Virus record (IMG/VR): IMGVR_UViG_2609460354_000010
Span: 1-11,476 of that record
From: a virus
Lineage: Duplodnaviria > Heunggongvirae > Uroviricota > Caudoviricetes
Reading direction: 5' to 3' (one strand)
Length of the DNA: 11,476 bases
The notes below the pieces were generated by a model. It had not been told where the DNA came from. It saw only the letters and a program-made list of their open reading frames with translations, and did no database searches. This document shows, in pieces, positions 1,784 through 11,476 of the stretch; the first letter of the stretch is position 1, and each line of letters opens with the position of its first letter. A program made the translations under genes and the position numbers.

Positions 1784-2959
1784 ATGAAATTTGAATCAAC
1801 ATCGTTAGTCAACATTATCACAGGTAATAATGGGTCAGGGAAAAGTTCGATATTAGCTGAAATTTCAAAGCAAGAATACGTTACAGGAAAAAATGTAATA
1901 TGCTTATCAAACACATCAACCAATAAATTCCCCAAAATAAAAAGCCATCGTTTTCACATTCTTAATCAGTCATCTAACACACTTACCAAAGCATTAAAAA
2001 AAGTTGTAGTAAGCAATAGTCACAATAAGATCGGGTCATCGCACGCACACATTTTCCCAAGAGTATTGGCGTATTTAGATTTCAATGAGCAACTCACATT
2101 TAAATTTACAATCTTCCCTTATGAAAGTTTCATTAGAAAATTTCAATCCGAGATGTACAACAATGAGTTAATCGGTAGTGATATCGATGAAATAACGAAT
2201 CACTTAAGAAATCTAATCGAAATAAACGATGACACTGCTAGCTCTACTGATCATGGAGTGAAAGGCTCTCACATACTTTATTTGGAGTATGCTTTCACAT
2301 ATGAATCAGAAAAAAGAATTAACACCATTCATAATCGCCTCATTGAACTAATGTTAAAGCATGAGCGCATTCTAAAAAAGAACCATTTAATACATGACAT
2401 TGAAATAACCTTAAGTCGTGGCCATAGTATAATACCATCATCTCATTTAAGCTCTGGTGAAGCGTGCTACATGGCAACACTTGCTTTTATCCTTACATAT
2501 ATATCGGATAACAGCGTAATAATAATTGATGAGCCAGAGAATAGTTTACATCCTCGTTGGCAAAAAAAATACACATCAAACCTTCTGGATCTATTATATT
2601 ATTTCGACATAAGAATAATATTAGCGACACATTCACCAATGATTGTTATAGGGGCGGTAGAAGACCATAGTGGCCTAAGTGTTTTCAAATCCGAAAATAG
2701 TACCCTTTCTCCCCTTGAAGGAAATGAAACTAATATTGATGAAGTAATGGTGGATGTGTTCGGTGTATTAACGTCAAGAAGCAGATATTTCAGCTACAAG
2801 ATAAATGAGATTCTTAATGAATACAACAATAAAAAAATAGATATAAATTCAGCACGCGACAAATTAAATAAAACAAAATCACTCGGGCCTGATGAAAGCC
2901 AAGTAAAAATAATTGAAGCAGCCAATGAAATATTAAATCAGATGGTGAAAAATGCCTAA
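1784..2959 (+). CDS. ABC-type (SMC/RecF-like, AAA15/AAA21-like) ATPase, 391 aa; PtuA-like candidate defense ATPase
   Basis: Walker A GNNGSGKSS (res 14-22, K20 codon 1841-1843), ABC signature-like LSSGE (222-226), Walker B IIIDEPE (246-252), H-loop LATHSP. The ATG follows the int TAG with no gap. The gene is AT-rich. Confidence 0.88.
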   Translation: MKFESTSLVNIITGNNGSGKSSILAEISKQEYVTGKNVICLSNTSTNKFPKIKSHRFHILNQSSNTLTKALKKVVVSNSHNKIGSSHAHIFPRVLAYLDFNEQLTFKFTIFPYESFIRKFQSEMYNNELIGSDIDEITNHLRNLIEINDDTASSTDHGVKGSHILYLEYAFTYESEKRINTIHNRLIELMLKHERILKKNHLIHDIEITLSRGHSIIPSSHLSSGEACYMATLAFILTYISDNSVIIIDEPENSLHPRWQKKYTSNLLDLLYYFDIRIILATHSPMIVIGAVEDHSGLSVFKSENSTLSPLEGNETNIDEVMVDVFGVLTSRSRYFSYKINEILNEYNNKKIDINSARDKLNKTKSLGPDESQVKIIEAANEILNQMVKNA

Positions 2960-3548
2960 CTTCACATTTACAGCAGAGAATATCTCTCATATCCGCACTG
3001 CTATATCCGAAAATAAACTCGATGACAAAGTAAAGGTGTGGGAGCACAAATTGCTTAAATCCATGAGAAGAGAACTCAAACAATATATTCTTTCCAACCG
3101 TAATGATGGTTTCAAATGTGCTTATTGCTTAAAGGATTTCCATAATGAACACAATATGAATATTGATGTTGAACACATTCTCCCCAAGTCACAATATCCA
3201 GAATATACGTTCACACTTAAAAATTTAGCGGTGGCCTGCAAGAGATGTAACCTATTAATAAAGAGAAATGATGTTTCATTTTTAAATGCTAACTTCATAA
3301 GAAAAAAACCGTTTAACTCAAAATATTATAAAATATTCCATCCTGTTATCGACAGAAAAAATCACTTATCTCTTCTGGATGTCCATTTTAATGGGTGCCA
3401 CATTATCAAGTATCAAACAAATAGTGAAAAAGCAAACAACACCTACATTTACTTCAAGTTAAATGAAGTTGAGATAGAAACATTAAACAACGCACAAGGA
3501 ATAGAACAGATAATTGATTTACTTCACACATACAACCCAAGAAATTAG
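2952..3548 (+). CDS. HNH-family endonuclease (HNN variant with CxxC...CxxC zinc-finger), 198 aa; PtuB-like candidate effector
   Basis: C56-x2-C59, catalytic-type His in DVEHILP (H75, codon 3174-3176), N91, C96-x2-C99-N. The start overlaps the ATPase stop by 8 nt (ATGCCTAA), indicating translational coupling. Confidence 0.88.
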   Translation: MPNFTFTAENISHIRTAISENKLDDKVKVWEHKLLKSMRRELKQYILSNRNDGFKCAYCLKDFHNEHNMNIDVEHILPKSQYPEYTFTLKNLAVACKRCNLLIKRNDVSFLNANFIRKKPFNSKYYKIFHPVIDRKNHLSLLDVHFNGCHIIKYQTNSEKANNTYIYFKLNEVEIETLNNAQGIEQIIDLLHTYNPRN

Positions 3549-3595: not shown

Positions 3596-3820
3596 TTAGC
3601 CTTTGGATTTTTTTGGATCATCTTTCCGCTGATAAGTACGCTCTTCCTGAAATCGCCCGTCCTCTTTGTGGATTTTAACCGAGCCTGTTTTATCAGTCAT
3701 ATATTCTTGCATTTCTCTGACAATCTCATTTTTAGTCGTCGCCGTCTTACTTGGTCTTTCATTACCTTCTTTCTGAAGTTTCCATTTATCACCATCCTTA
3801 GTAATGTGATATTTATCCAT
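3596..3820 (-). CDS. DUF2188-like small protein (74 aa from the ATG at 3820; the ORF track gives a TTG-initiated 78-aa form)
   Basis: The motif pattern H-I-T-K-DGDKW-K-KEG...IHKEDGRFQEERTY resembles the DUF2188 family as I recall it. GGAGG lies 5-6 nt upstream of the internal ATG (MDKYH...), so the shorter start is favoured. Confidence 0.65.
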   Translation of the reverse strand: MDKYHITKDGDKWKLQKEGNERPSKTATTKNEIVREMQEYMTDKTGSVKIHKEDGRFQEERTYQRKDDPKKSKG

Positions 3821-4032
3821 TAGAACCTCCAAATGTAGTTAGACATATGAGATGACAGTAAAAATTTTATACGGAAAGAGGCACTAGATTTGTGCCATAA
3901 CTCTCATTCTGAAAATACGCCTCCGATAAACACAATAAATGACATTGGCAACTTATCGACGGTTGGTATTACTGCATCTACATATCGCATACCTGAGATC
4001 ATATTAATATTACGTTCAACCGCTAGCGCGCA

Positions 4033-4051: not shown

Positions 4052-4074
4052 CGCCCGCTTTGCGGGGCGGTTTT
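4051..4074 (+). terminator. GC-rich hairpin plus TTTT immediately next to cos
   Basis: CCGCCCGC-TTT-GCGGGGCGG followed by TTTT; it would stop plus-strand read-through from the cargo islet. Confidence 0.4.
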
Positions 4075-4153
4075 AATGCAGTTGCACTGACACGCTCAGA
4101 CCGCGCCGGGAATGGTGCGGTCTGCAGAAAATGAGGCAGGAAAACGCATGCAA

Positions 4154-4185
4154 AGCCATGCACCTTATCGATGCATGGCTTTTTT
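4154..4185. terminator. Hairpin with flanking T/A runs between cos and psu (candidate bidirectional terminator)
   Basis: AGCCATGCA (4154-4162) pairs with TGCATGGCT (4172-4180), followed by TTTTT on the plus strand; on the minus strand the hairpin is followed by TTTGCATGCGTTTT. The psu stop is at 4216. Confidence 0.5.
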
Positions 4186-4215
4186 CAGTAAAAACGGGCG
4201 GATTTTCGGGGAATT

Positions 4216-4788
4216 TTACACAGACTGACGTGATGCCAGTTGCGCACTTTTACGCGAAAAAATCATGTTCTGCGCAGGAGTGAATTTTTCACGGCTGTCA
4301 TCCACCGAAGCCGCGTCAGGCCTGAATCCGATGGCCGTTAAAATGTCGCTATCCTGTACGGAATAATTAATTTTTTCACCCTTCGCAAGCCAGGACAGAA
4401 GGGCTTCACGCAGGGCATCTGTGGCACGCTGTATGGCACAGTTTCGGGCAATGGCCGTCAGCTCACTGTAGCCCATCAGCTCCGGTGCCAGTGCCGCCGC
4501 CAGTGCTGTGCCGTGCTGCTGCATAAAATCATTCAGCCGGTCGCGGATGCTGATGTGCTGAACGGCTTCATGCGAACGAATATAACGACCGGCGGCCTGA
4601 TTCACCTGCCATTTTCTGACTTCGATAATATTGCGTAATTCGTCCAGGCGACTGACGTTTCTGCCTTCTCCTGACTGAAGCCGCAGATATTCCTGTTCGG
4701 CCGCTGCCAGCTCATTTTTGCGTTGCAGCCATGCTGCTTTGTTATTCTGACAGGTGTCAAAGGCCTGCTGTAAGGCTGTGCTTTCCAT
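4216..4788 (-). CDS. psu: Polarity suppression protein Psu (capsid decoration / Rho antagonist), 190 aa
   Basis: 190 aa, the same length as P4 Psu; the sequence (MESTALQQAFDTCQNNKAAWLQ...) matches P4 Psu as I recall it. It is the last gene of the sid-delta-psu operon. Confidence 0.92.
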   Translation of the reverse strand: MESTALQQAFDTCQNNKAAWLQRKNELAAAEQEYLRLQSGEGRNVSRLDELRNIIEVRKWQVNQAAGRYIRSHEAVQHISIRDRLNDFMQQHGTALAAALAPELMGYSELTAIARNCAIQRATDALREALLSWLAKGEKINYSVQDSDILTAIGFRPDAASVDDSREKFTPAQNMIFSRKSAQLASRQSV

Positions 4789-4861
4789 CGTTATCTCTTT
4801 CTCATCATGCTGAAGAATAAAAATACGGTGTGCGGCGACGGCCGGGGTTAACCGGCAGCCC

Positions 4862-5362
4862 TCATTCCAGACGCAGCGAATATGATTGTGTTTTTAACCG
4901 TACTGGCGGCAGTTCCTGTTTTTCATGCAGGCGTTCTGCCAGTTCGTCCGGTGTGACCGGGCGGACAATGAAGCGGTTGATGGTCTGAAGCGTTTTAAAC
5001 ACCAGACCACAGCCCGGATCCGTGCACACATAAAAACGTTCGGTGACTTCCTGAGACAGACGCCGCGATGTTCTTGACAGTGCAAGGCCTTTACATCTCC
5101 GACAACAATATCCGGTAACAAGCATTCTTTTCGGGCGTTTCATACTGCCGGAGGCAGAAGTCAGTGAATCGCGGTATCTCTGTTTGCCTGAAATGTATTC
5201 CATTCCTGAATCTTTACTGTCAGAGAAAAAGCTTTCACTCGCTTCAAATGTCGCAGAGCAATAAATATTCCGGCACTGTGCAATCATTATCTTGGTGCCA
5301 TCGTCCATGAAATGTGCGCGGCGGGTGTGAGCAACATGTCCACACGACGGGCAGTAAATCAT
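4862..5362 (-). CDS. delta: Delta late-gene transcriptional activator (Ogr-family zinc finger, duplicated), 166 aa
   Basis: Begins MIYCPSCGH...CRNIYCSATF (Ogr/Delta Cys4 motif) and a second Cys-rich repeat follows. 166 aa as in P4 Delta. The start overlaps the sid stop (ATGA). Confidence 0.92.
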   Translation of the reverse strand: MIYCPSCGHVAHTRRAHFMDDGTKIMIAQCRNIYCSATFEASESFFSDSKDSGMEYISGKQRYRDSLTSASGSMKRPKRMLVTGYCCRRCKGLALSRTSRRLSQEVTERFYVCTDPGCGLVFKTLQTINRFIVRPVTPDELAERLHEKQELPPVRLKTQSYSLRLE

Positions 5363-6093
5363 GACAGCAGTCCTCTGGCCTTAAGCTCTGCTCCCTGCTG
5401 GTCTATTTTGTCCTGCCACACCTTGCGCTGTGCCGGTGTGCCTGCCACCTCATAATCCATGTGCGGAAGTGTTGCCGCTGACAGTCCGGTCAGCCGGAGA
5501 ACCGGCTCGCCGGTGAGGCTGATTTGCATCTGTTTAATTTTCTGTTCCAGCGATGATTTCACCTGCTGCATGACAGCCTTTTCCGGTGCGACGTAGCCCT
5601 GATGGCCGGTGGCGTTGGCGAGCGGATTTTCCTGTACCAGAATGCTCAGATGCATTGCCCGGACAAGCGCCTCACAGGTTTCATTCAGGGCGTGTTCCAG
5701 CTCATGCTCTGCATACAGGCTCAGCAGGTGATGGTGTGCCTTCCGGTAGGCGGTGGCCGTGCTGTCACACGCCCCTTTCAGGCGTTCGCGTTCAAAATTC
5801 AGCACCACGGCCAGATTGTCATATTCCTGTACCAGCTCCCGGCGTGCCACGCGCTCAATGTGGCGCTGTTTCAGCTCGTCGCTCAGGACACCACCGGCTG
5901 CACGAAAGGCCGTGCGCCAGTCGTCAGCGTCGTTTCCGTCGGCCTGCGCCAGCGCATTTTTTTCCTGCTCTGCCCGTTCAATGGCCGTGACGGTCTCATC
6001 CATCAGGCGGGCGTTCTCAAGATGAGCGGCTCTGGCCTTTTCCAGTTGTGCCAGCGCGGGTTGCAGATATTCAGGGATGGTGTTGTCAGACAT
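5359..6093 (-). CDS. sid: Sid capsid size-determination (external scaffold) protein, 244 aa from the ATG at 6093
   Basis: The ORF track starts at a GTG (6111), but GAGGAG lies 7 nt upstream of the internal ATG (MSDNTIPEY...), giving 244 aa as in P4 Sid. The protein is coiled-coil rich. Confidence 0.9.
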   Translation of the reverse strand: MSDNTIPEYLQPALAQLEKARAAHLENARLMDETVTAIERAEQEKNALAQADGNDADDWRTAFRAAGGVLSDELKQRHIERVARRELVQEYDNLAVVLNFERERLKGACDSTATAYRKAHHHLLSLYAEHELEHALNETCEALVRAMHLSILVQENPLANATGHQGYVAPEKAVMQQVKSSLEQKIKQMQISLTGEPVLRLTGLSAATLPHMDYEVAGTPAQRKVWQDKIDQQGAELKARGLLS

Positions 6094-6127
6094 TTTCCGG
6101 CTCCTCGTCACTTCAGGTTAAGAAAAT

Positions 6128-6183
6128 TGTGACGTACACCGGACAACAACACGACGCATTGCAGATGTGCCAGCCCTGACACA
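6128..6183 (-). promoter_or_regulatory. Psid-like late promoter with two TGT-N12-ACA activator (Delta/Ogr) sites
   Basis: TGTgacgtacaccggACA (6128-6145) and TGTgccagccctgacACA (6166-6183), centres 38 bp apart. Placing them at about -18 and -55 predicts a minus-strand start near 6119, 26 nt upstream of the sid ATG. Confidence 0.6.
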
Positions 6184-6262
6184 GGAGACTCATCCTCAGA
6201 CCGGCAAGCCAGGAAAAGGTCGCAGGAAAAACCGGCTTACTGTTTGTTTTTTTATATTTTAC

Positions 6263-6366
6263 TGTTCACCTCTGTTCACCATAAGAAAAAAGATAAGTAA
6301 TACAGTAAGTTAAAGGGTGAACAATCGCAGTAATGACTGTTCACCGTCTGTTCACCACTGTTCACC
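6263..6366. repeat. Iteron cluster: six copies of TGTTCACC (five direct, one inverted); crr/ori-type alpha-binding repeats
   Basis: Copies at 6263-6270, 6273-6280, 6317-6324 (inverted, GGTGAACA), 6338-6345, 6349-6356 and 6359-6366, spaced about 10-11 bp within clusters. TGTTCACC is the type I iteron bound by P4 alpha. An AT-rich tract follows (6370-6470). Confidence 0.75.
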
Positions 6367-6524
6367 CGTTGATGGGCTTTTTGTGCTGTTTATTACTTTT
6401 TATTTTTATTAATTCACTGAAATAAATAAGAAAAAACAATTTGTATTTCACTATAATTTTTTCCAGCTCCTTCCAGAGCGTTTTAAAGCTATCTGGCGCT
6501 GATGTACAAAAAATACACAGCCAT

Positions 6525-6542
6525 TGTAAGGCTGCCGGAACA
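6525..6542 (+). promoter_or_regulatory. Candidate PLL-like late promoter activator site (TGT-N12-ACA) upstream of vis
   Basis: TGTaaggctgccggaACA, with a degenerate second site (TGC-N12-CAA, 6561-6578) 36 bp downstream. Predicted plus-strand start is near 6588; the vis ATG is at 6645. Confidence 0.4.
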
Positions 6543-6644
6543 AATCCCCCCTGTTGCGTCTGCCGAAAATATTCACAAAATAAAGCGCTACCCGAAGCCG
6601 GACGGACTTATCCGGTGCTGTATGGACATTAACGAGGTAGCCCG

Positions 6645-6911
6645 ATGCAAGCTGTTTTTTCTTCCCCGTCTCCCGCCCCTGTGACGCCACTGATGCCGCT
6701 GCCGGACATCACGCAGGAGCGTTTTTTACGTCTGCCGGAAGTGATGCACCTGTGCGGCCTGTCACGCTCGACCATCTACGAACTCATCCGTAAGGGGGAA
6801 TTTCCGCCGCAGGTGAGTCTTGGCGGTAAAAATGTGGCCTGGCTGCACTCTGAAGTCACCGCATGGATGGCCGGGCGCATTGCCGGACGCAAACGGGGGT
6901 ACGACGCGTGA
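6645..6911 (+). CDS. vis: AlpA/Vis-family HTH regulator (excisionase-like), 88 aa
   Basis: HTH core [42 protein letters not shown] is typical of the AlpA/Vis family. GAGG lies 7 nt upstream of the ATG. Its position between the late promoter and the immunity region matches P4 vis. Confidence 0.8.
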
Positions 6912-6946
6912 TGATACCCGTCCTGCAAAAACTCCCTTTTTCTGGC

Positions 6947-6976
6947 TTGCCTTTTTCCGGCATTTGCGGATATAGT
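6947..6976 (+). promoter_or_regulatory. Candidate sigma70 promoter (PLE-like): -35 TTGCCT, 18-bp spacer, -10 TATAGT
   Basis: Hexamers read from the sequence; located between vis and the immunity leader. Only a motif match, not verified. Confidence 0.3.
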
Positions 6977-7002
6977 TTTTCCGCTGCCGCAAAATCGGCA
7001 GC

Positions 7003-7288
7003 CGGGCGTGAGAACCCGAGCAATTCACAGGCGACATATGACGCGCCACGCGTCTTTTTTTGTGTCGCAATCAATGCCACAGAGCGCCAGATTATGGTGT
7101 GGTGTGTGGTCAGTCGTGCAGATGGCATTCCGTGCATCCTGCCCGCGTCCGCTCATTATGCCGCAGAGTCAATGGTAGCTCAGGCGGGGCAGCCTCCGGG
7201 CTGGCCGGTATCCTGTGAAGCCGGTATTCTCACCCCCGTCTGGGCTATCGCCATCGAGCGTGAGAACTCCGGCGATAGCGTTATTTGC
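7003..7288 (+). ncRNA. Candidate P4-type RNA-immunity leader region (seqA/seqB/seqC-like elements and terminator hairpins); exact RNA ends unknown
   Basis: Direct repeat GCGTGAGAAC at 7006-7015 and 7258-7267. A segment at 7220-7233 (GCCGGTATTCTCAC) is complementary to both in 12 of 14 positions. Hairpin plus T7 at 7040-7061 (GACGCG-CCA-CGCGTC-TTTTTTT). Hairpin GCTATCGCC/GGCGATAGC (7244-7279) followed by TTATTT. No convincing coding frame across 6912-7309. Confidence 0.3.
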
Positions 7289-7309
7289 TATTCACAGGAG
7301 GCTGCCATC

Positions 7310-7507
7310 ATGGCTACAACCCTTACCCCCTCACACCCTGAATTTGTCTTTGTGTTTGCGGCTGTCCGTCGCACAGACCGTCATCCCCGTATCTGTATGC
7401 TTCGCACCGTCGCCGGTGATGAACGCAGCGCCCGCCGTTCCCTTGTCCGTGACTATGTGCTCTCCCTTGCTGCCCGTCTGCCGGTGGTGGAGGTGTCCCG
7501 TGCGTAA
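7310..7507 (+). CDS. kil: Small protein, 65 aa; Kil-like by position and size
   Basis: AGGAGG lies 8 nt upstream of the ATG and third-position codon bias is strong. It is the first gene after the immunity leader. The name is assigned from P4 synteny and size only. Confidence 0.6.
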
Positions 7508-7787
7508 TAAAAAAGCCCCTCAGACCGTCTCAGCGCGTCATGACGCCCGTGAACACCTCAGCATTGAGGCTTACCATAAGCTCAACCGCGCCAGCGCCGT
7601 ATCCCAGTTTGTTGGGGGTGATTTGATTCACCGTGAACTCTCCGGCCTGCATCAGCTCTACATTCCGCATATTTTCAGTTACCTGAATGAAGATATTGAT
7701 TTTGTGCTGAATGAGCTGAAAGCCAAAGGCCTGTGCCGCGATTTTCTCGCCCAGCAGAAAGACCGGGGAGACAGGACGCATGTTTGA
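7500..7787 (+). CDS. epsilon: Small protein, 95 aa (GTG start); epsilon-like (antirepressor) by position
   Basis: GTG start 6 nt after GGTGGAGG, overlapping the kil stop; coding-like codon usage. The ORF track's longer 190-aa version has a low-complexity N-terminus that overlaps kil and the leader. The name is by synteny only. Confidence 0.55.
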
Positions 7788-8235
7788 TTTTCCCCAGCCC
7801 GGTGAGATTTACCGTTCTGCCGGTTTTCCCGATGTGGCCGTGGTCGGCATTCTGGAAGACGGTATTCCGTGGGAAATGCCGTACCGCTGCCCGGACATTG
7901 TCTGGAACCCGTACCGCCGTAAATTCAGTATCCTTGTGCGTATCCTCGCTGACGGACGCACCACAGACATCCCGCTGGGGCGTTTTCTGCGGGAATTTAC
8001 CTGTGACCGTCCTGACCTGTTTAAACGCAGCCCCGTAAACCGGCATGCGGTACTGAAAGAAATGGCCGGAGACCCGGAATTACAGAAATGGCGGGAAAAA
8101 TATCTGGATATTTACCCGCAGGCCCCTGTTCCGGTCAGCCGGGCGGCACCGGTGGCGCGGGAATGGCGGGAAATTCCCCGCACGGAGCCTGACCCGGAAA
8201 TCACCCCGGATAACAGTTACCGCAATTATCTGTAA
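7780..8235 (+). CDS. Conserved hypothetical protein, 151 aa (P4 orf151-like)
   Basis: The ATG overlaps the upstream stop (ATGTTTGA), indicating translational coupling. Size and position match P4 orf151 as I recall it. Confidence 0.7.
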   Translation: MFDFPQPGEIYRSAGFPDVAVVGILEDGIPWEMPYRCPDIVWNPYRRKFSILVRILADGRTTDIPLGRFLREFTCDRPDLFKRSPVNRHAVLKEMAGDPELQKWREKYLDIYPQAPVPVSRAAPVAREWREIPRTEPDPEITPDNSYRNYL

Positions 8236-8370
8236 TTAAAAAACGACACCCGAAAAATTAAATGTGCGTATTCGCGCAGGGATACGCACGTCTTCAGGAG
8301 ACGCAGATATGCCTTATCAGTTAATGCAACCGGCACGGAATGCAGTCATCTGTCACAGGGAGGAAAGCAA

Positions 8371-8691
8371 ATGAAAACCCCCTTACCGCCCGTCTTACGC
8401 GCAGCCCTTTACCGTCGCGCTGTCGCCTGTGCCTGGCTGACCGTGTGCGAACGTCAGCACCGCTACCCGCATCTCACCCTTGAATCACTGGAGGCGGCCA
8501 TCGCCGCTGAGCTGGAAGGCTTTTATCTGCGCCAGCACGGTGAGGAAAAAGGGCGTCAGATAGCCTGTGCCCTGCTGGAAGATTTAATGGAATCCGGCCC
8601 CCTGAAGGCCGCGCCGTCGCTGTCCTTTCTCGGGCTGGTTGTGATGGATGAACTCTGTGCCCGTCACATAAAAGCGCCGGTACTGCACTGA
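8371..8691 (+). CDS. cnr: 106-aa protein immediately upstream of alpha; Cnr-like (copy number regulation)
   Basis: GGAGG-containing RBS before the ATG; 106 aa, directly preceding alpha as for P4 cnr (orf106) as I recall it. Confidence 0.65.
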
Positions 8692-8705
8692 AGGAGAACA
8701 ACACC

Positions 8706-11039
8706 ATGAAAATGAACGTAACCGCCACCGTCAGCCATGCACTCGGCCACTGGCCGCGTATTCTCCCGGCGCTGGGGATTCAGGTGCTGAAAAACCGTCA
8801 TCAGCCCTGTCCGGTCTGTGGCGGGAGTGACCGCTTCCGTTTTGATGACAGGGAGGGGCGCGGCACCTGGTACTGCAATCAGTGTGGTGCCGGTGACGGC
8901 CTGAAACTGGTTGAAAAGGTGTTTGGTGTTTCCCCGTCCGACGCGGCCACAAAGGTGGCTGCCGTGACCGGCAGTCTGCCCCCGGCTGACCCGGCAGTGA
9001 CGGCCGCCGCCGTTGCTGAAACAGAAGCCGCCCGGAAGAACGCCGCCGCACTGGCACAAACCCTGATGGCGAAAACCCGTCCCGGAACCGGTAACGCCTA
9101 CCTGACCCGCAAGGGCTTTCCCGGCCGGGAATGCCGGATGCTGACCGGCACACACAGAGCCGGTGGCGTGAGCTGGCGCGCCGGTGACCTTGTGGTGCCA
9201 CTGTATGACGACAGCGGCGAACTGGTTAACCTTCAGTTAATCAGTGCTGACGGCCGTAAGCGCACCCTGAAAGGCGGACAGGTCAGGGGCACCTGTCACA
9301 TCCTTGAAGGACAGAATCAGGCCGGAAAACGTCTGTGGATAGCGGAGGGATACGCGACCGCACTTACCGTACATCACCTGACCGGTGAAACGGTGATGGT
9401 GGCGCTTTCTTCCGTGAACCTCCTTTCTCTGGCCAGCCTTGCCCGGCAGAAGCATCCGGCCTGTCAGATTGTCCTTGCCGCAGACCGTGACCTCAGCGGT
9501 GACGGCCAGAAAAAAGCCGCCGCAGCCGCAGATGCGTGTGAGGGTGTTGTTGCCCTGCCGCCGGTCTTCGGTGACTGGAATGATGCCTTCACGCAGTACG
9601 GCGGGGAAGCCACCCGTAAGGCCATTTATGATGCCATCCGGCCACCGGCTGAAAGCCCGTTCGACACCATGAGCGAAGCGGAGTTTTCCGCCATGAGTAC
9701 CAGCGAAAAGGCCATGCGTATCTATGAGCATTACGGCGAGGCGCTCGCGGTCGATGCCAACGGCCAGCTTCTGTCCCGCTATGAAAATGGTGTCTGGAAG
9801 GTGCTGCCGCCACAGGACTTTGCCCGGGATGTGGCCGGGCTGTTTCAGCGGCTGCGTGCGCCGTTCTCCTCCGGGAAGGTGGCCTCCGTGGTGGACACCC
9901 TGAAGCTGATTATTCCGCAGCAGGAAGCCCCCTCCCGCCGCCTGATTGGCTTTCGTAACGGCGTGCTCGACACGCAGAACGGCACGTTCCACCCGCACAG
10001 TCCGTCACACTGGATGCGCACCCTGTGCGATGTGGATTTCACCCCGCCGGTGGAAGGGGAAACGCTGGAAACCCACGCCCCCGCGTTCTGGCGCTGGCTT
10101 GACCGTGCCGCCGGTGGCCGTGCGGAAAAACGCGACGTGATTCTGGCCGCACTGTTTATGGTGCTGGCAAACCGCTACGACTGGCAGCTCTTTCTGGAGG
10201 TGACCGGTCCCGGCGGCAGCGGCAAAAGTATCATGGCCGAAATAGCCACCCTGCTGGCCGGTGAGGATAACGCCACGTCGGCCACCATCGAGACGCTGGA
10301 ATCCCCGCGTGAACGTGCCGCGTTAACTGGCTTCTCACTGATACGCCTGCCGGACCAGGAAAAATGGAGCGGCGACGGAGCCGGACTCAAGGCCATCACC
10401 GGCGGCGATGCAGTGTCCGTTGACCCGAAATACCGGGATGCGTACTCCACGCACATCCCGGCGGTGATTCTGGCCGTGAACAATAACCCGATGCGCTTCA
10501 CCGACCGCAGCGGCGGCGTGTCACGCCGGCGGGTGATTATTCACTTCCCGGAACAGATAGCCCCGCAGGAGCGCGACCCGCAGCTTAAGGACAAAATCAC
10601 CCGCGAGCTGGCGGTCATCGTGCGTCACCTGATGCAGAAATTCAGCGACCCGATGCTCGCCCGGTCACTGCTTCAGTCCCAGCAAAACTCAGACGAGGCG
10701 CTGAACATCAAACGGGATGCCGACCCGACGTTTGATTTTATCGGCTATCTGGAAACCCTGCCGCAGACCAGCGGCATGTATATGGGGAACGCCAGTATCA
10801 TCCCGCGTAATTACCGTAAATACCTCTATCACGCCTATCTGGCCTACATGGAGGCAAACGGCTACCGGAATGTACTCAGTCTGAAAATGTTCGGGCTGGG
10901 GCTGCCGGTGATGCTGAAGGAATACGGACTGAATTACGAGAAGCGCCATACCAAACAGGGGATACAGACCAACCTGACGCTGAAAGAGGAAAGCTACGGC
11001 GACTGGCTGCGTATTACCGTGAAGGAGATCGGTGAGTAA
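8706..11039 (+). CDS. alpha: Alpha replication protein (primase-helicase with C-terminal origin-binding domain), 777 aa
   Basis: 777 aa, as for P4 alpha. N-terminal zinc-binding CPVCGG...CNQCGAG (primase zinc finger), Walker A GPGGSGKS (helicase), AAGGAG RBS. The TGTTCACC iterons it would bind are at 6263-6366. Confidence 0.95.
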   Translation: MKMNVTATVSHALGHWPRILPALGIQVLKNRHQPCPVCGGSDRFRFDDREGRGTWYCNQCGAGDGLKLVEKVFGVSPSDAATKVAAVTGSLPPADPAVTAAAVAETEAARKNAAALAQTLMAKTRPGTGNAYLTRKGFPGRECRMLTGTHRAGGVSWRAGDLVVPLYDDSGELVNLQLISADGRKRTLKGGQVRGTCHILEGQNQAGKRLWIAEGYATALTVHHLTGETVMVALSSVNLLSLASLARQKHPACQIVLAADRDLSGDGQKKAAAAADACEGVVALPPVFGDWNDAFTQYGGEATRKAIYDAIRPPAESPFDTMSEAEFSAMSTSEKAMRIYEHYGEALAVDANGQLLSRYENGVWKVLPPQDFARDVAGLFQRLRAPFSSGKVASVVDTLKLIIPQQEAPSRRLIGFRNGVLDTQNGTFHPHSPSHWMRTLCDVDFTPPVEGETLETHAPAFWRWLDRAAGGRAEKRDVILAALFMVLANRYDWQLFLEVTGPGGSGKSIMAEIATLLAGEDNATSATIETLESPRERAALTGFSLIRLPDQEKWSGDGAGLKAITGGDAVSVDPKYRDAYSTHIPAVILAVNNNPMRFTDRSGGVSRRRVIIHFPEQIAPQERDPQLKDKITRELAVIVRHLMQKFSDPMLARSLLQSQQNSDEALNIKRDADPTFDFIGYLETLPQTSGMYMGNASIIPRNYRKYLYHAYLAYMEANGYRNVLSLKMFGLGLPVMLKEYGLNYEKRHTKQGIQTNLTLKEESYGDWLRITVKEIGE

Positions 11040-11083: not shown

Positions 11084-11476
11084 TTATGCAGCCTCTTTTT
11101 CTGGATTCAGGTAGACTTCTGATATGTAGTCCCAGTTACGTAGATGCTTTCCCCAACGTTCAGGATGCTGTTCGCGTGCCAGCTGGTATACTGCTTTTCT
11201 GGCCGCCAGTATTTTCATATCATTACCTTGATGACGCTCGGCTGGCGTGACGTATTTGATCCCGCTGTGCTTATGTTCAAAGTTGTACCAGTTTACAAAA
11301 CGGTTTACCCATATTCTGGCATCATTAATAGTGCGAAAACCGTTCTCAGGCCACCAGGGACAATATTTGAGAGTCCGGAACAAAGATTCTGAGTAAGGAT
11401 TATCATTGCTGACTCTTGGCCGGGAATAAGAACTTAGCACACCAAGCGCATACATTTTCGCCAACAACGTGTAACT
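11084..11476 (-). CDS. IS3-family DDE transposase (OrfB), C-terminal part; gene continues beyond the window edge
   Basis: DNPYSESLFRTLK resembles the IS3-family catalytic-Glu region, with a C-terminal ...YVTPAE... tail. The reading frame is open to the window end. GC content differs from the satellite backbone. Confidence 0.8.
   Translation of the reverse strand, partial: SYTLLAKMYALGVLSSYSRPRVSNDNPYSESLFRTLKYCPWWPENGFRTINDARIWVNRFVNWYNFEHKHSGIKYVTPAERHQGNDMKILAARKAVYQLAREQHPERWGKHLRNWDYISEVYLNPEKEAA

Follow-up and report, generated by a model that had tools for sequence, protein, structure and literature searches.

What is encoded in the roughly 400 bp that lie between vis and the first small gene downstream of it, and is this DNA read as RNA, as protein, or as both? 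In the window (the whole stretch of DNA that was analysed, 11,476 nt), a first-pass annotation made from the letters had placed here a non-coding leader with the repeat and complement geometry of a P4-type RNA immunity system. The interval measures 398 bp, from the vis stop (6911) to the kil ATG (7310), and our analysis indicates that the region around it (6900-7520) is almost certainly satellite phage P4's own RNA immunity switch, which would work as described for P4. The locus is already known: it is the type example of the P4 immunity region, and nothing at this site is new. Since it is P4's own, novelty can come only from the comparative picture, which concerns how the RNA elements and the reading frame that crosses them vary among related satellites.

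Pairwise alignment of window positions 6900-7520 with the P4 sequence X51522 gave 99% identity over 621 nt, including an exact match from 6985 to 7372 that spans the four target blocks, CI, t1, and the kil start. A BLAST search against phage records likewise matched 6900-7320 to bacteriophage P4 (98.6% identity). Given the exact match, the region can be identified as PLE, seqA, t1, cI, seqC, and kil of P4, and the proposed CI/seqA/seqB/seqC arrangement is borne out. On the plus strand, three Rfam families matched at full length, all above their own gathering scores: the C4 antisense RNA (RF01695, 7168-7255, 74.9 bits versus 45), isrK (RF01394, 6983-7060, 69.7 bits versus 50), and c4-a1b1 (RF03163, 6970-7022, 49.5 bits versus 46.7). 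Alignment to the P4 cI region and a covariance-model search, both of which had been suggested as checks, therefore point the same way. Similarity extends well beyond the leader, as window positions 4052-11010 align to P4 4665-11624 at 98.2% identity, with the gene order psu, delta, sid, ori, vis, leader, kil, epsilon, orf151, orf106, alpha. The few substitutions relative to P4 in the immunity region all fall outside the RNA elements. The locus marks the window as a P4-type satellite prophage, and the element should, judging from its sequence, be homoimmune with P4. One discrepancy concerns the reference itself. At 6982-6983, the window and all 11 homologs read CGCTG(C/T)CG, versus GCCTGCCG in the P4 records of the 1980s and 1990s, a CG/GC inversion at about positions 8692-8693 of X51522. 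With the window's reading, leader hairpin 1 has a perfect 7-bp stem, and the P4 reference probably carries either an inversion error or a laboratory-strain change at this point.

The element that hosts the locus differs from P4 in its integrase, in its attachment site (ssrA instead of leuX), and in its Septu cargo. The prophage adjoins the E. coli ssrA gene (tmRNA, 295.8 bits, 40-402), and its tyrosine integrase (398 aa, 587-1783) is unrelated at the DNA level to the leuX-specific int of P4. The order smpB-ssrA-int...alpha-ypjA in E. coli EC14 places the element at the K-12 CP4-57 site; an attR repeat of the 3' end of ssrA is absent from the window. Between int and psu lie the Septu genes ptuA (AAA_21 ATPase, PADLOC 4.9e-162, 1784-2959) and ptuB (HNH, 8.2e-86, 2952-3548). 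Rousset et al. 2022 described this int-psu hotspot of P4 and named Septu as one of the systems it holds. A small gene of the DUF2188 family (3596-3832, minus strand, RefSeq annotation) separates the Septu pair from psu and lies near window position 4052, the point at which the window starts to match the end of the linear P4 record, taken to be the cos region. At the other end, P4 similarity stops at 11010, shortly before the alpha stop (11039), and no P4-like sequence follows alpha. A minus-strand open reading frame (11084-11467) that almost reaches the window end is, as a guess from its sequence, an IS3-type transposase remnant; RefSeq annotates no feature between alpha and ypjA.

Table 1. 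Elements of the immunity region and flanking genes, with positions in the window
Feature	Position	Strand	Basis or remark
vis	6645..6911	+	P4 ORF88, AlpA-family excisionase/regulator; Pfam Phage_AlpA 7.3e-21; ORF88 annotated in the P4 record
eta frame	6911..7507	+	ATG at 6911 (RefSeq GTG at 6908); kil nested at 3' end
Predicted PLE promoter	6947..6976	+	-35 TTGCCT 6947-6952, 18-nt spacer, -10 TATAGT 6971-6976
Leader hairpin 1	6983..7002	+	GCUGCCG-CAAAAU-CGGCAGC; isrK covariance-model alignment, MFE fold
seqA target	7003..7031	+	Block a1 in hairpin loop, block b1 in linker
Block a1	7008-7014	+	GUGAGAA; loop of hairpin 7003-7018
Block b1	7024-7031	+	UUCACAGG; single-stranded linker before t1
t1 intrinsic terminator	7040..7061	+	GACGCG-CCA-CGCGUC, then U7; 3' hairpin of isrK model
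Variable spacer	7062..7167	+	106 nt, between t1 and CI
cI, gene for CI RNA	7168..7255	+	RF01695, identity to P4
CI outer stem	7173-7189 / 7234-7250	+	C4 model alignment
CI hairpin 1	7190-7203	+	C4 model alignment
CI hairpin 2	7204-7225	+	b' (CCUGUGAA, 7212-7219) in loop
a'	7227-7233	+	UUCUCAC, single-stranded; a' and b' together form seqB
seqC target	7244..7298	+	a2 in hairpin loop, b2 over kil Shine-Dalgarno
seqC hairpin	7244-7252 / 7271-7279	+	Perfect 9-bp inverted repeat; a2 GUGAGAA 7260-7266 in loop
Block b2	7291-7298	+	UUCACAGG; overlaps kil Shine-Dalgarno AGGAGG 7296-7301
kil	7310..7507	+	65 aa, Icd-like cell-division inhibitor; NCBIfam phage_ICD_like 8.8e-22
timm	7310-7466	+	X51522 8365-8209 mapped through pairwise alignment; inside kil
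epsilon (derepression protein)	7500..7787	+	Pfam Derepression 7.7e-51; P4 annotation

The elements at the start of the leader (Table 1) agree with what is recorded for P4. The candidate sigma70 promoter of the first-pass annotation is present and is the sole sigma-70-like site in 6600-7600; its -10 falls on the "-10 consensus" marked in the P4 record X02534, and the site is kept in homologs. From this -10, we infer that transcription starts near 6983, seven bases downstream, where the isrK model also begins. The minimum free energy (MFE) fold of the region, another of the suggested checks, forms both leader hairpin 1 and the hairpin at 7040-7061. The latter had been called a terminator and is indeed canonical, with a run of seven T residues; it lies between PLE and cI and is conserved in all homologs. 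We refer to it as t1, the name of this terminator in P4. In the spacer that follows, length classes among homologs differ only by multiples of 3.

The C4 fold of CI is well supported by comparison, as its 27 base pairs are 100% paired in 11 distinct sequences and include compensatory changes. Mature CI is reportedly about 69 nt long, produced by RNase P and PNPase. The second hairpin terminator that had been proposed, at 7244-7288, holds up in part: the perfect 9-bp hairpin is real and covaries (98% paired across homologs, with 3 pairs changed on both sides), but it is no canonical intrinsic terminator. A terminator scan makes no call there because the loop is 18 nt long and the tail (GTTATTTGCTATT) is weak and not conserved. 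In P4, an atypical Rho-independent site between cI and timm, t4, is said to be the main block to transcription. We tentatively regard the seqC hairpin with its weak U-rich tail as the best candidate for t4, a label that is kept tentative because no conserved U-tract follows the hairpin. The same hairpin shares a segment with CI: 7244-7250 pairs with 7173-7179 in the CI outer stem and with 7273-7279 in the seqC hairpin. Since both helices are maintained across homologs, the comparison suggests that this segment acts as a conformational switch between mutually exclusive folds. We also considered a third contact between CI and the kil leader, in which GGCAGCCTCC of CI hairpin 1 (7188-7197) would pair with the kil Shine-Dalgarno region (GGAGGCTGCC, 7297-7306), the two being complementary at 10 of 10 positions. 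This contact was rejected as a supported interaction because hairpin 1 is invariant and the Shine-Dalgarno region varies without compensation. The match partly reflects a resemblance of the Shine-Dalgarno region to hairpin 1's own 3' arm; in P4 itself, the contact may still occur.

The geometry first noticed at this locus was that of a 10-nt direct repeat and a complementary segment between its copies. The repeat, GCGTGAGAAC, is exact at 7006-7015 and 7258-7267, has no other exact copy in the 11.5-kb window, and extends to a 22-nt imperfect repeat (7003-7024 and 7255-7276). The segment 7220-7233, described as complementary to both copies, is not fully complementary over its 14 nt, but contains an exact 7-nt core: TTCTCAC at 7227-7233 pairs with GTGAGAA at 7008-7014 and 7260-7266. 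This pairing extends imperfectly to 16 nt at 88% with seqA and to 19 nt at 79% with seqC. The first-pass annotation had missed a second block of complementarity, in which TTCACAGG occurs at 7024-7031 and 7291-7298 and both copies are complementary to CCTGTGAA at 7212-7219. Hence, seqB pairs with each of its targets at 7 of 7 positions in block a and 8 of 8 in block b.

Comparison among related elements provides strong evidence for this pairing model. A first set of 11 homologous loci comprised 5 from other enterobacterial genera and 6 from E. coli at 70-90% identity, and isrK and C4 matches were found in the same order in all 11. A search with the 65-aa Kil protein returned 5 loci only, and the wider set was obtained by scanning IMG/VR for the invariant CI core as a DNA pattern, giving 112 distinct loci (IMG/VR and genomes). 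In the alignment, the sequences of blocks a and b vary from element to element, and whenever they do, seqA, CI, and seqC all change together. In block a, for example, seqA and seqC read GUGAGAA opposite UUCUCAC of CI in the window, UUGGCGU opposite ACGCCAA in L003, UUUGCAG opposite CUGCAAA in L004, GUGGAAA opposite UUUCCAC in L008, and GUAGGAA opposite UUCCUAC in L010. In block b, the corresponding pairs are UUCACAGG and CCUGUGAA in the window, CUUAUUGG and CCAAUAAG in L003, CUUCAAGG and CCUUGAAG in L004, GUUAUCGG and CCGAUAAC in L008, and UCUGAAGG and CCUUCAGA in L011. For seqB and seqC, 99.4% of positions in the first-set alignment are paired, versus 71% in shuffles and 34-43% in slid registers, and 11 of 14 pairs change on both sides in that alignment. 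Predicted duplexes between CI and its own targets are about 10 kcal/mol more stable than non-cognate ones (-33.5 versus -20.9 kcal/mol with seqA; -32.0 versus -23.8 kcal/mol with seqC). Across the wider set, all four targets are fully complementary to their own CI in 103 of the 112 distinct loci. The blocks also reassort, with at least 9 a-types and at least 22 b-types in 44 combinations among the 112 loci (L003-L134). This covariation supports the pairing independently of the P4 experiments. The six blocks (a1, b1, a', b', a2, and b2) changing in concert may, as read from these sequences, define many heteroimmunity groups. Our literature search found no systematic survey of such RNA addresses, and a census of P4-like elements makes no mention of the immunity RNA (PMC8628076).

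The same covariation bears on a different reading of the leader, in which the transcript from PLE to t1 (6983-7060) acts mainly in trans, as an IsrK-type small RNA that activates a downstream open reading frame on a long transcript. Besides the full-length isrK match (69.7 bits), this reading draws on Gifsy-1, where IsrK works in this way (PMC4825925), and on TraDIS data from S. Typhi, in which IsrK-like elements of P4-like prophages were required (PMC3632133). We consider it unlikely to be the main role here. Blocks a1 and b1 covary with a' and b' of CI in 103 of 112 loci, which identifies CI as the conserved partner of the leader RNA. Moreover, the leader RNA bears in seqA the very blocks found in seqC and so lacks complementarity to seqC and to the kil Shine-Dalgarno; no independent evidence for a trans role was found in this analysis. 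A role of the leader RNA as a decoy or sponge for CI is compatible with the P4-type switch.

The region may also be read as protein. The first-pass annotation had seen no convincing coding frame between vis and kil, which is true of coding signal but not of the frame itself: the list of open reading frames shows the kil frame open from 6854 to 7507, across the whole leader. In RefSeq (PGAP), 6908-7507 is a single CDS of 199 aa, "host cell division inhibitor Icd-like protein" (WP_032172943.1), and no ncRNA is given. The same 199-aa annotation was noted at two further loci (L014, 7309-7908, and L135, 8561-9160). The translated RNA leader matches Pfam PF10554 (Phage_ASH, 5e-21), a family whose name traces to the old "ash/cI 137 aa" annotation in P4 records. 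The kil/eta frame is open in 12 of 12 loci, versus 2-9 stops in each of the other two frames. Of 108 loci in a larger set, 101 keep it open past PLE and 7 have it broken, with the other two frames stop-free in only 3 and 1 loci.

On these grounds, the region could be simply protein-coding, as the N-terminus of an Eta protein of 199 aa ("Ash family" or Icd-like), with incidental RNA features; in favour of this are the RefSeq CDS, the Pfam match, and the open frame with its length variation in multiples of 3. The way in which the sequence diverges makes this very improbable. In the two-thirds of the frame before kil, the three codon positions diverge equally, with no codon-position bias and a dN/dS of 0.6-0.9, whereas kil itself has a coding signature (divergence of 0.449 at third positions versus 0.213 and 0.175 at the others; dN/dS 0.25). 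The conserved "amino-acid" blocks upstream of kil coincide exactly with the translated -10 box, the hairpins, t1, and the C4 core of CI, and the helices show compensatory changes. The old annotation of a "cI/ash protein" in P4 has itself been superseded by the RNA (PMC4825925, PMC10111431). Translation of eta is real in P4, yet it forms part of the P4-type switch rather than an alternative to it. The vis stop overlaps the eta start (TGATG), and kil is nested in eta, which starts upstream of PLE. In the part of PMC10111431 that summarises Forti 1999, eta of P4 starts at the vis stop, the leader lies inside the eta open reading frame, eta is translated only from the upstream late promoter, and this translation prevents termination.

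A frame conserved in homologs had been named as the finding that would count against an RNA locus. Such a frame exists, but as there is no amino-acid-level constraint upstream of kil, it does not refute the RNA reading; the RNA gene and the translated frame are both true of the same DNA. Selection appears, from these divergence patterns, to keep the eta frame open for ribosome transit and not for a particular protein sequence. The N-terminal part of Eta ("Ash family" or Icd-like) may thus be an RNA gene kept stop-free only for ribosome passage, in which case what a Pfam family and thousands of RefSeq annotations describe is in part an RNA gene that is translated. We see evenly balanced prospects for the joint proposition that P4-like satellites use a two-block combinatorial RNA "address" and that the N-terminal part of Eta is such a stop-free RNA gene. 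The principle behind both readings is foreshadowed in the P1/P7 and P4 literature. Finally, the idea that the repeats and their complement match by chance in intergenic DNA rich in GC, for which the shortness of the exact core (just 7 nt) could be cited, can be dismissed with near certainty, given a 10-mer found exactly twice in the window with both copies in this region, three covariance models over threshold, identity to P4, and four sites that covary in more than 100 loci.

How the P4-type switch would operate can be described from the mapped elements. In P4, termination at t1 is enhanced by CI via seqA, which serves CI autoregulation. At this locus, the constitutive promoter PLE would transcribe the leader, and a small stable CI RNA would be cut out of it (within 7168-7255), promoter activity, processing, the part played by each terminator, and the immunity phenotype being predicted or drawn from the literature. 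CI would expose two recognition blocks, b' in the loop of hairpin 2 and a' in the unpaired stretch next to it, and on nascent transcripts from PLE these would pair with seqA upstream (through a1 and b1) and with seqC downstream (through a2 and b2). Pairing with seqA would lead to more stopping at t1 and limit the synthesis of CI itself, and pairing with seqC would cover the ribosome-binding site of kil, the first gene translated from PLE transcripts, and leave it untranslated. Transcription would stop short of the derepression and replication genes (epsilon, orf151, orf106, and alpha), at an atypical site close to the seqC hairpin and at timm, the Rho-dependent site inside kil. Epsilon would accordingly be one of the downstream genes that the immunity system silences. 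Transcripts that start at the late promoter upstream would escape, as ribosomes arriving from vis would translate eta through seqA, cI, and seqC. The termination mechanism and the nesting of kil in eta are summarised by Hershko-Shalev et al. (PMC4825925) and Mageeney et al. (PMC10111431). Together with PMC3632133, these secondary sources describe CI as processed from the PLE leader and pairing with seqA and seqC, and the resulting premature termination as keeping the P4 replication genes off. The timm fragment of the Milan laboratory, a Rho-dependent terminator, corresponds to X51522 8365-8209 (PMC3177188).

The route from pairing of CI with seqA to termination at t1 is not evident from sequence, as the MFE fold forms t1 regardless. 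Candidates for an antiterminator that would compete with t1, and so explain CI-dependent termination, comprised only 4-5 bp. Both GGCG (7030-7033) with CGCC (7043-7046) and GCGUG (7006-7010) with CACGC (7047-7051) were rejected as invariant or inconsistent across homologs.

As a textbook antisense-RNA transcription-termination switch in its original element, the locus carries little weight for discovery. It is useful in showing that RefSeq presents an RNA locus solely as a 199-aa protein, without an ncRNA feature, and in providing a natural three-way RNA covariation data set of more than 100 loci, which could help predict cross-immunity among P4-like satellites with anti-phage defence cargo. 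What is added here is modest, namely the second recognition block, the large-scale three-way covariation, and an annotated protein without codon-level constraint over the leader.

Among known systems, immI of P1/P7 (c4-icd-ant) belongs to the same RNA family, with C4 (RF01695) and c4-a1b1 (RF03163) matches, and has the same layout of an a1/b1 target, a processed antisense RNA, and a2/b2 blocks over the ribosome-binding site of an Icd-like gene. The window contains the C4 RNA, the two-block targets, and the Icd-like gene downstream, and the P1-like phages RCS47, D6, and JL22 are 72-76% identical to it over 7169-7317. The c4-icd-ant mechanism itself has reportedly been worked out in P1. In place of the Ant antirepressor gene that follows icd in immI, the P4 region has epsilon (the P2 derepression protein) and replication genes: kil is followed by epsilon (Derepression family), orf151, DUF5375, and the alpha primase, and a domain search found no ANT-type domain downstream of kil. 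Features of the P4 region beyond the immI layout are the intrinsic terminator t1 and the eta frame in which kil is nested. With no Ant gene downstream, the locus works like immI, yet it is no immI operon.

The leader RNA, with two hairpins and a terminator, resembles Gifsy-1 IsrK (STnc1160 locus) of Salmonella; it fits the isrK family (RF01394) over its full length and belongs to that family by score. The conserved partner differs, being CI for the P4-type leader RNA and a downstream mRNA segment for Gifsy-1 IsrK. The short, Hfq-binding IsrK RNA of Gifsy-1 works in trans, switching on translation of orf45-anrP, and a CI-like nature has been proposed for a processed RNA located downstream that is complementary to IsrK (PMC4825925). 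The anti-immunity locus of the telomere phages N15, phiKO2, and PY54 is also similar: phiKO2 aligns to 6960-7272 at 76% identity in two pieces, and with PY54 and several N15-like phages of Klebsiella the alignment covers the CI region. Unlike the P4-type satellite, these are full temperate phages, in which a small processed RNA reportedly controls an antirepressor operon. With the P4 immunity region (PLE as a predicted promoter, seqA, t1, cI/CI RNA, seqC, kil/eta, and timm), the locus has every sequence element in common, and every defining feature that can be assessed computationally is present at the sequence level. Barquist et al. (PMC3632133) equate the Rfam IsrK and C4 families with seqA and the CI RNA of P4.
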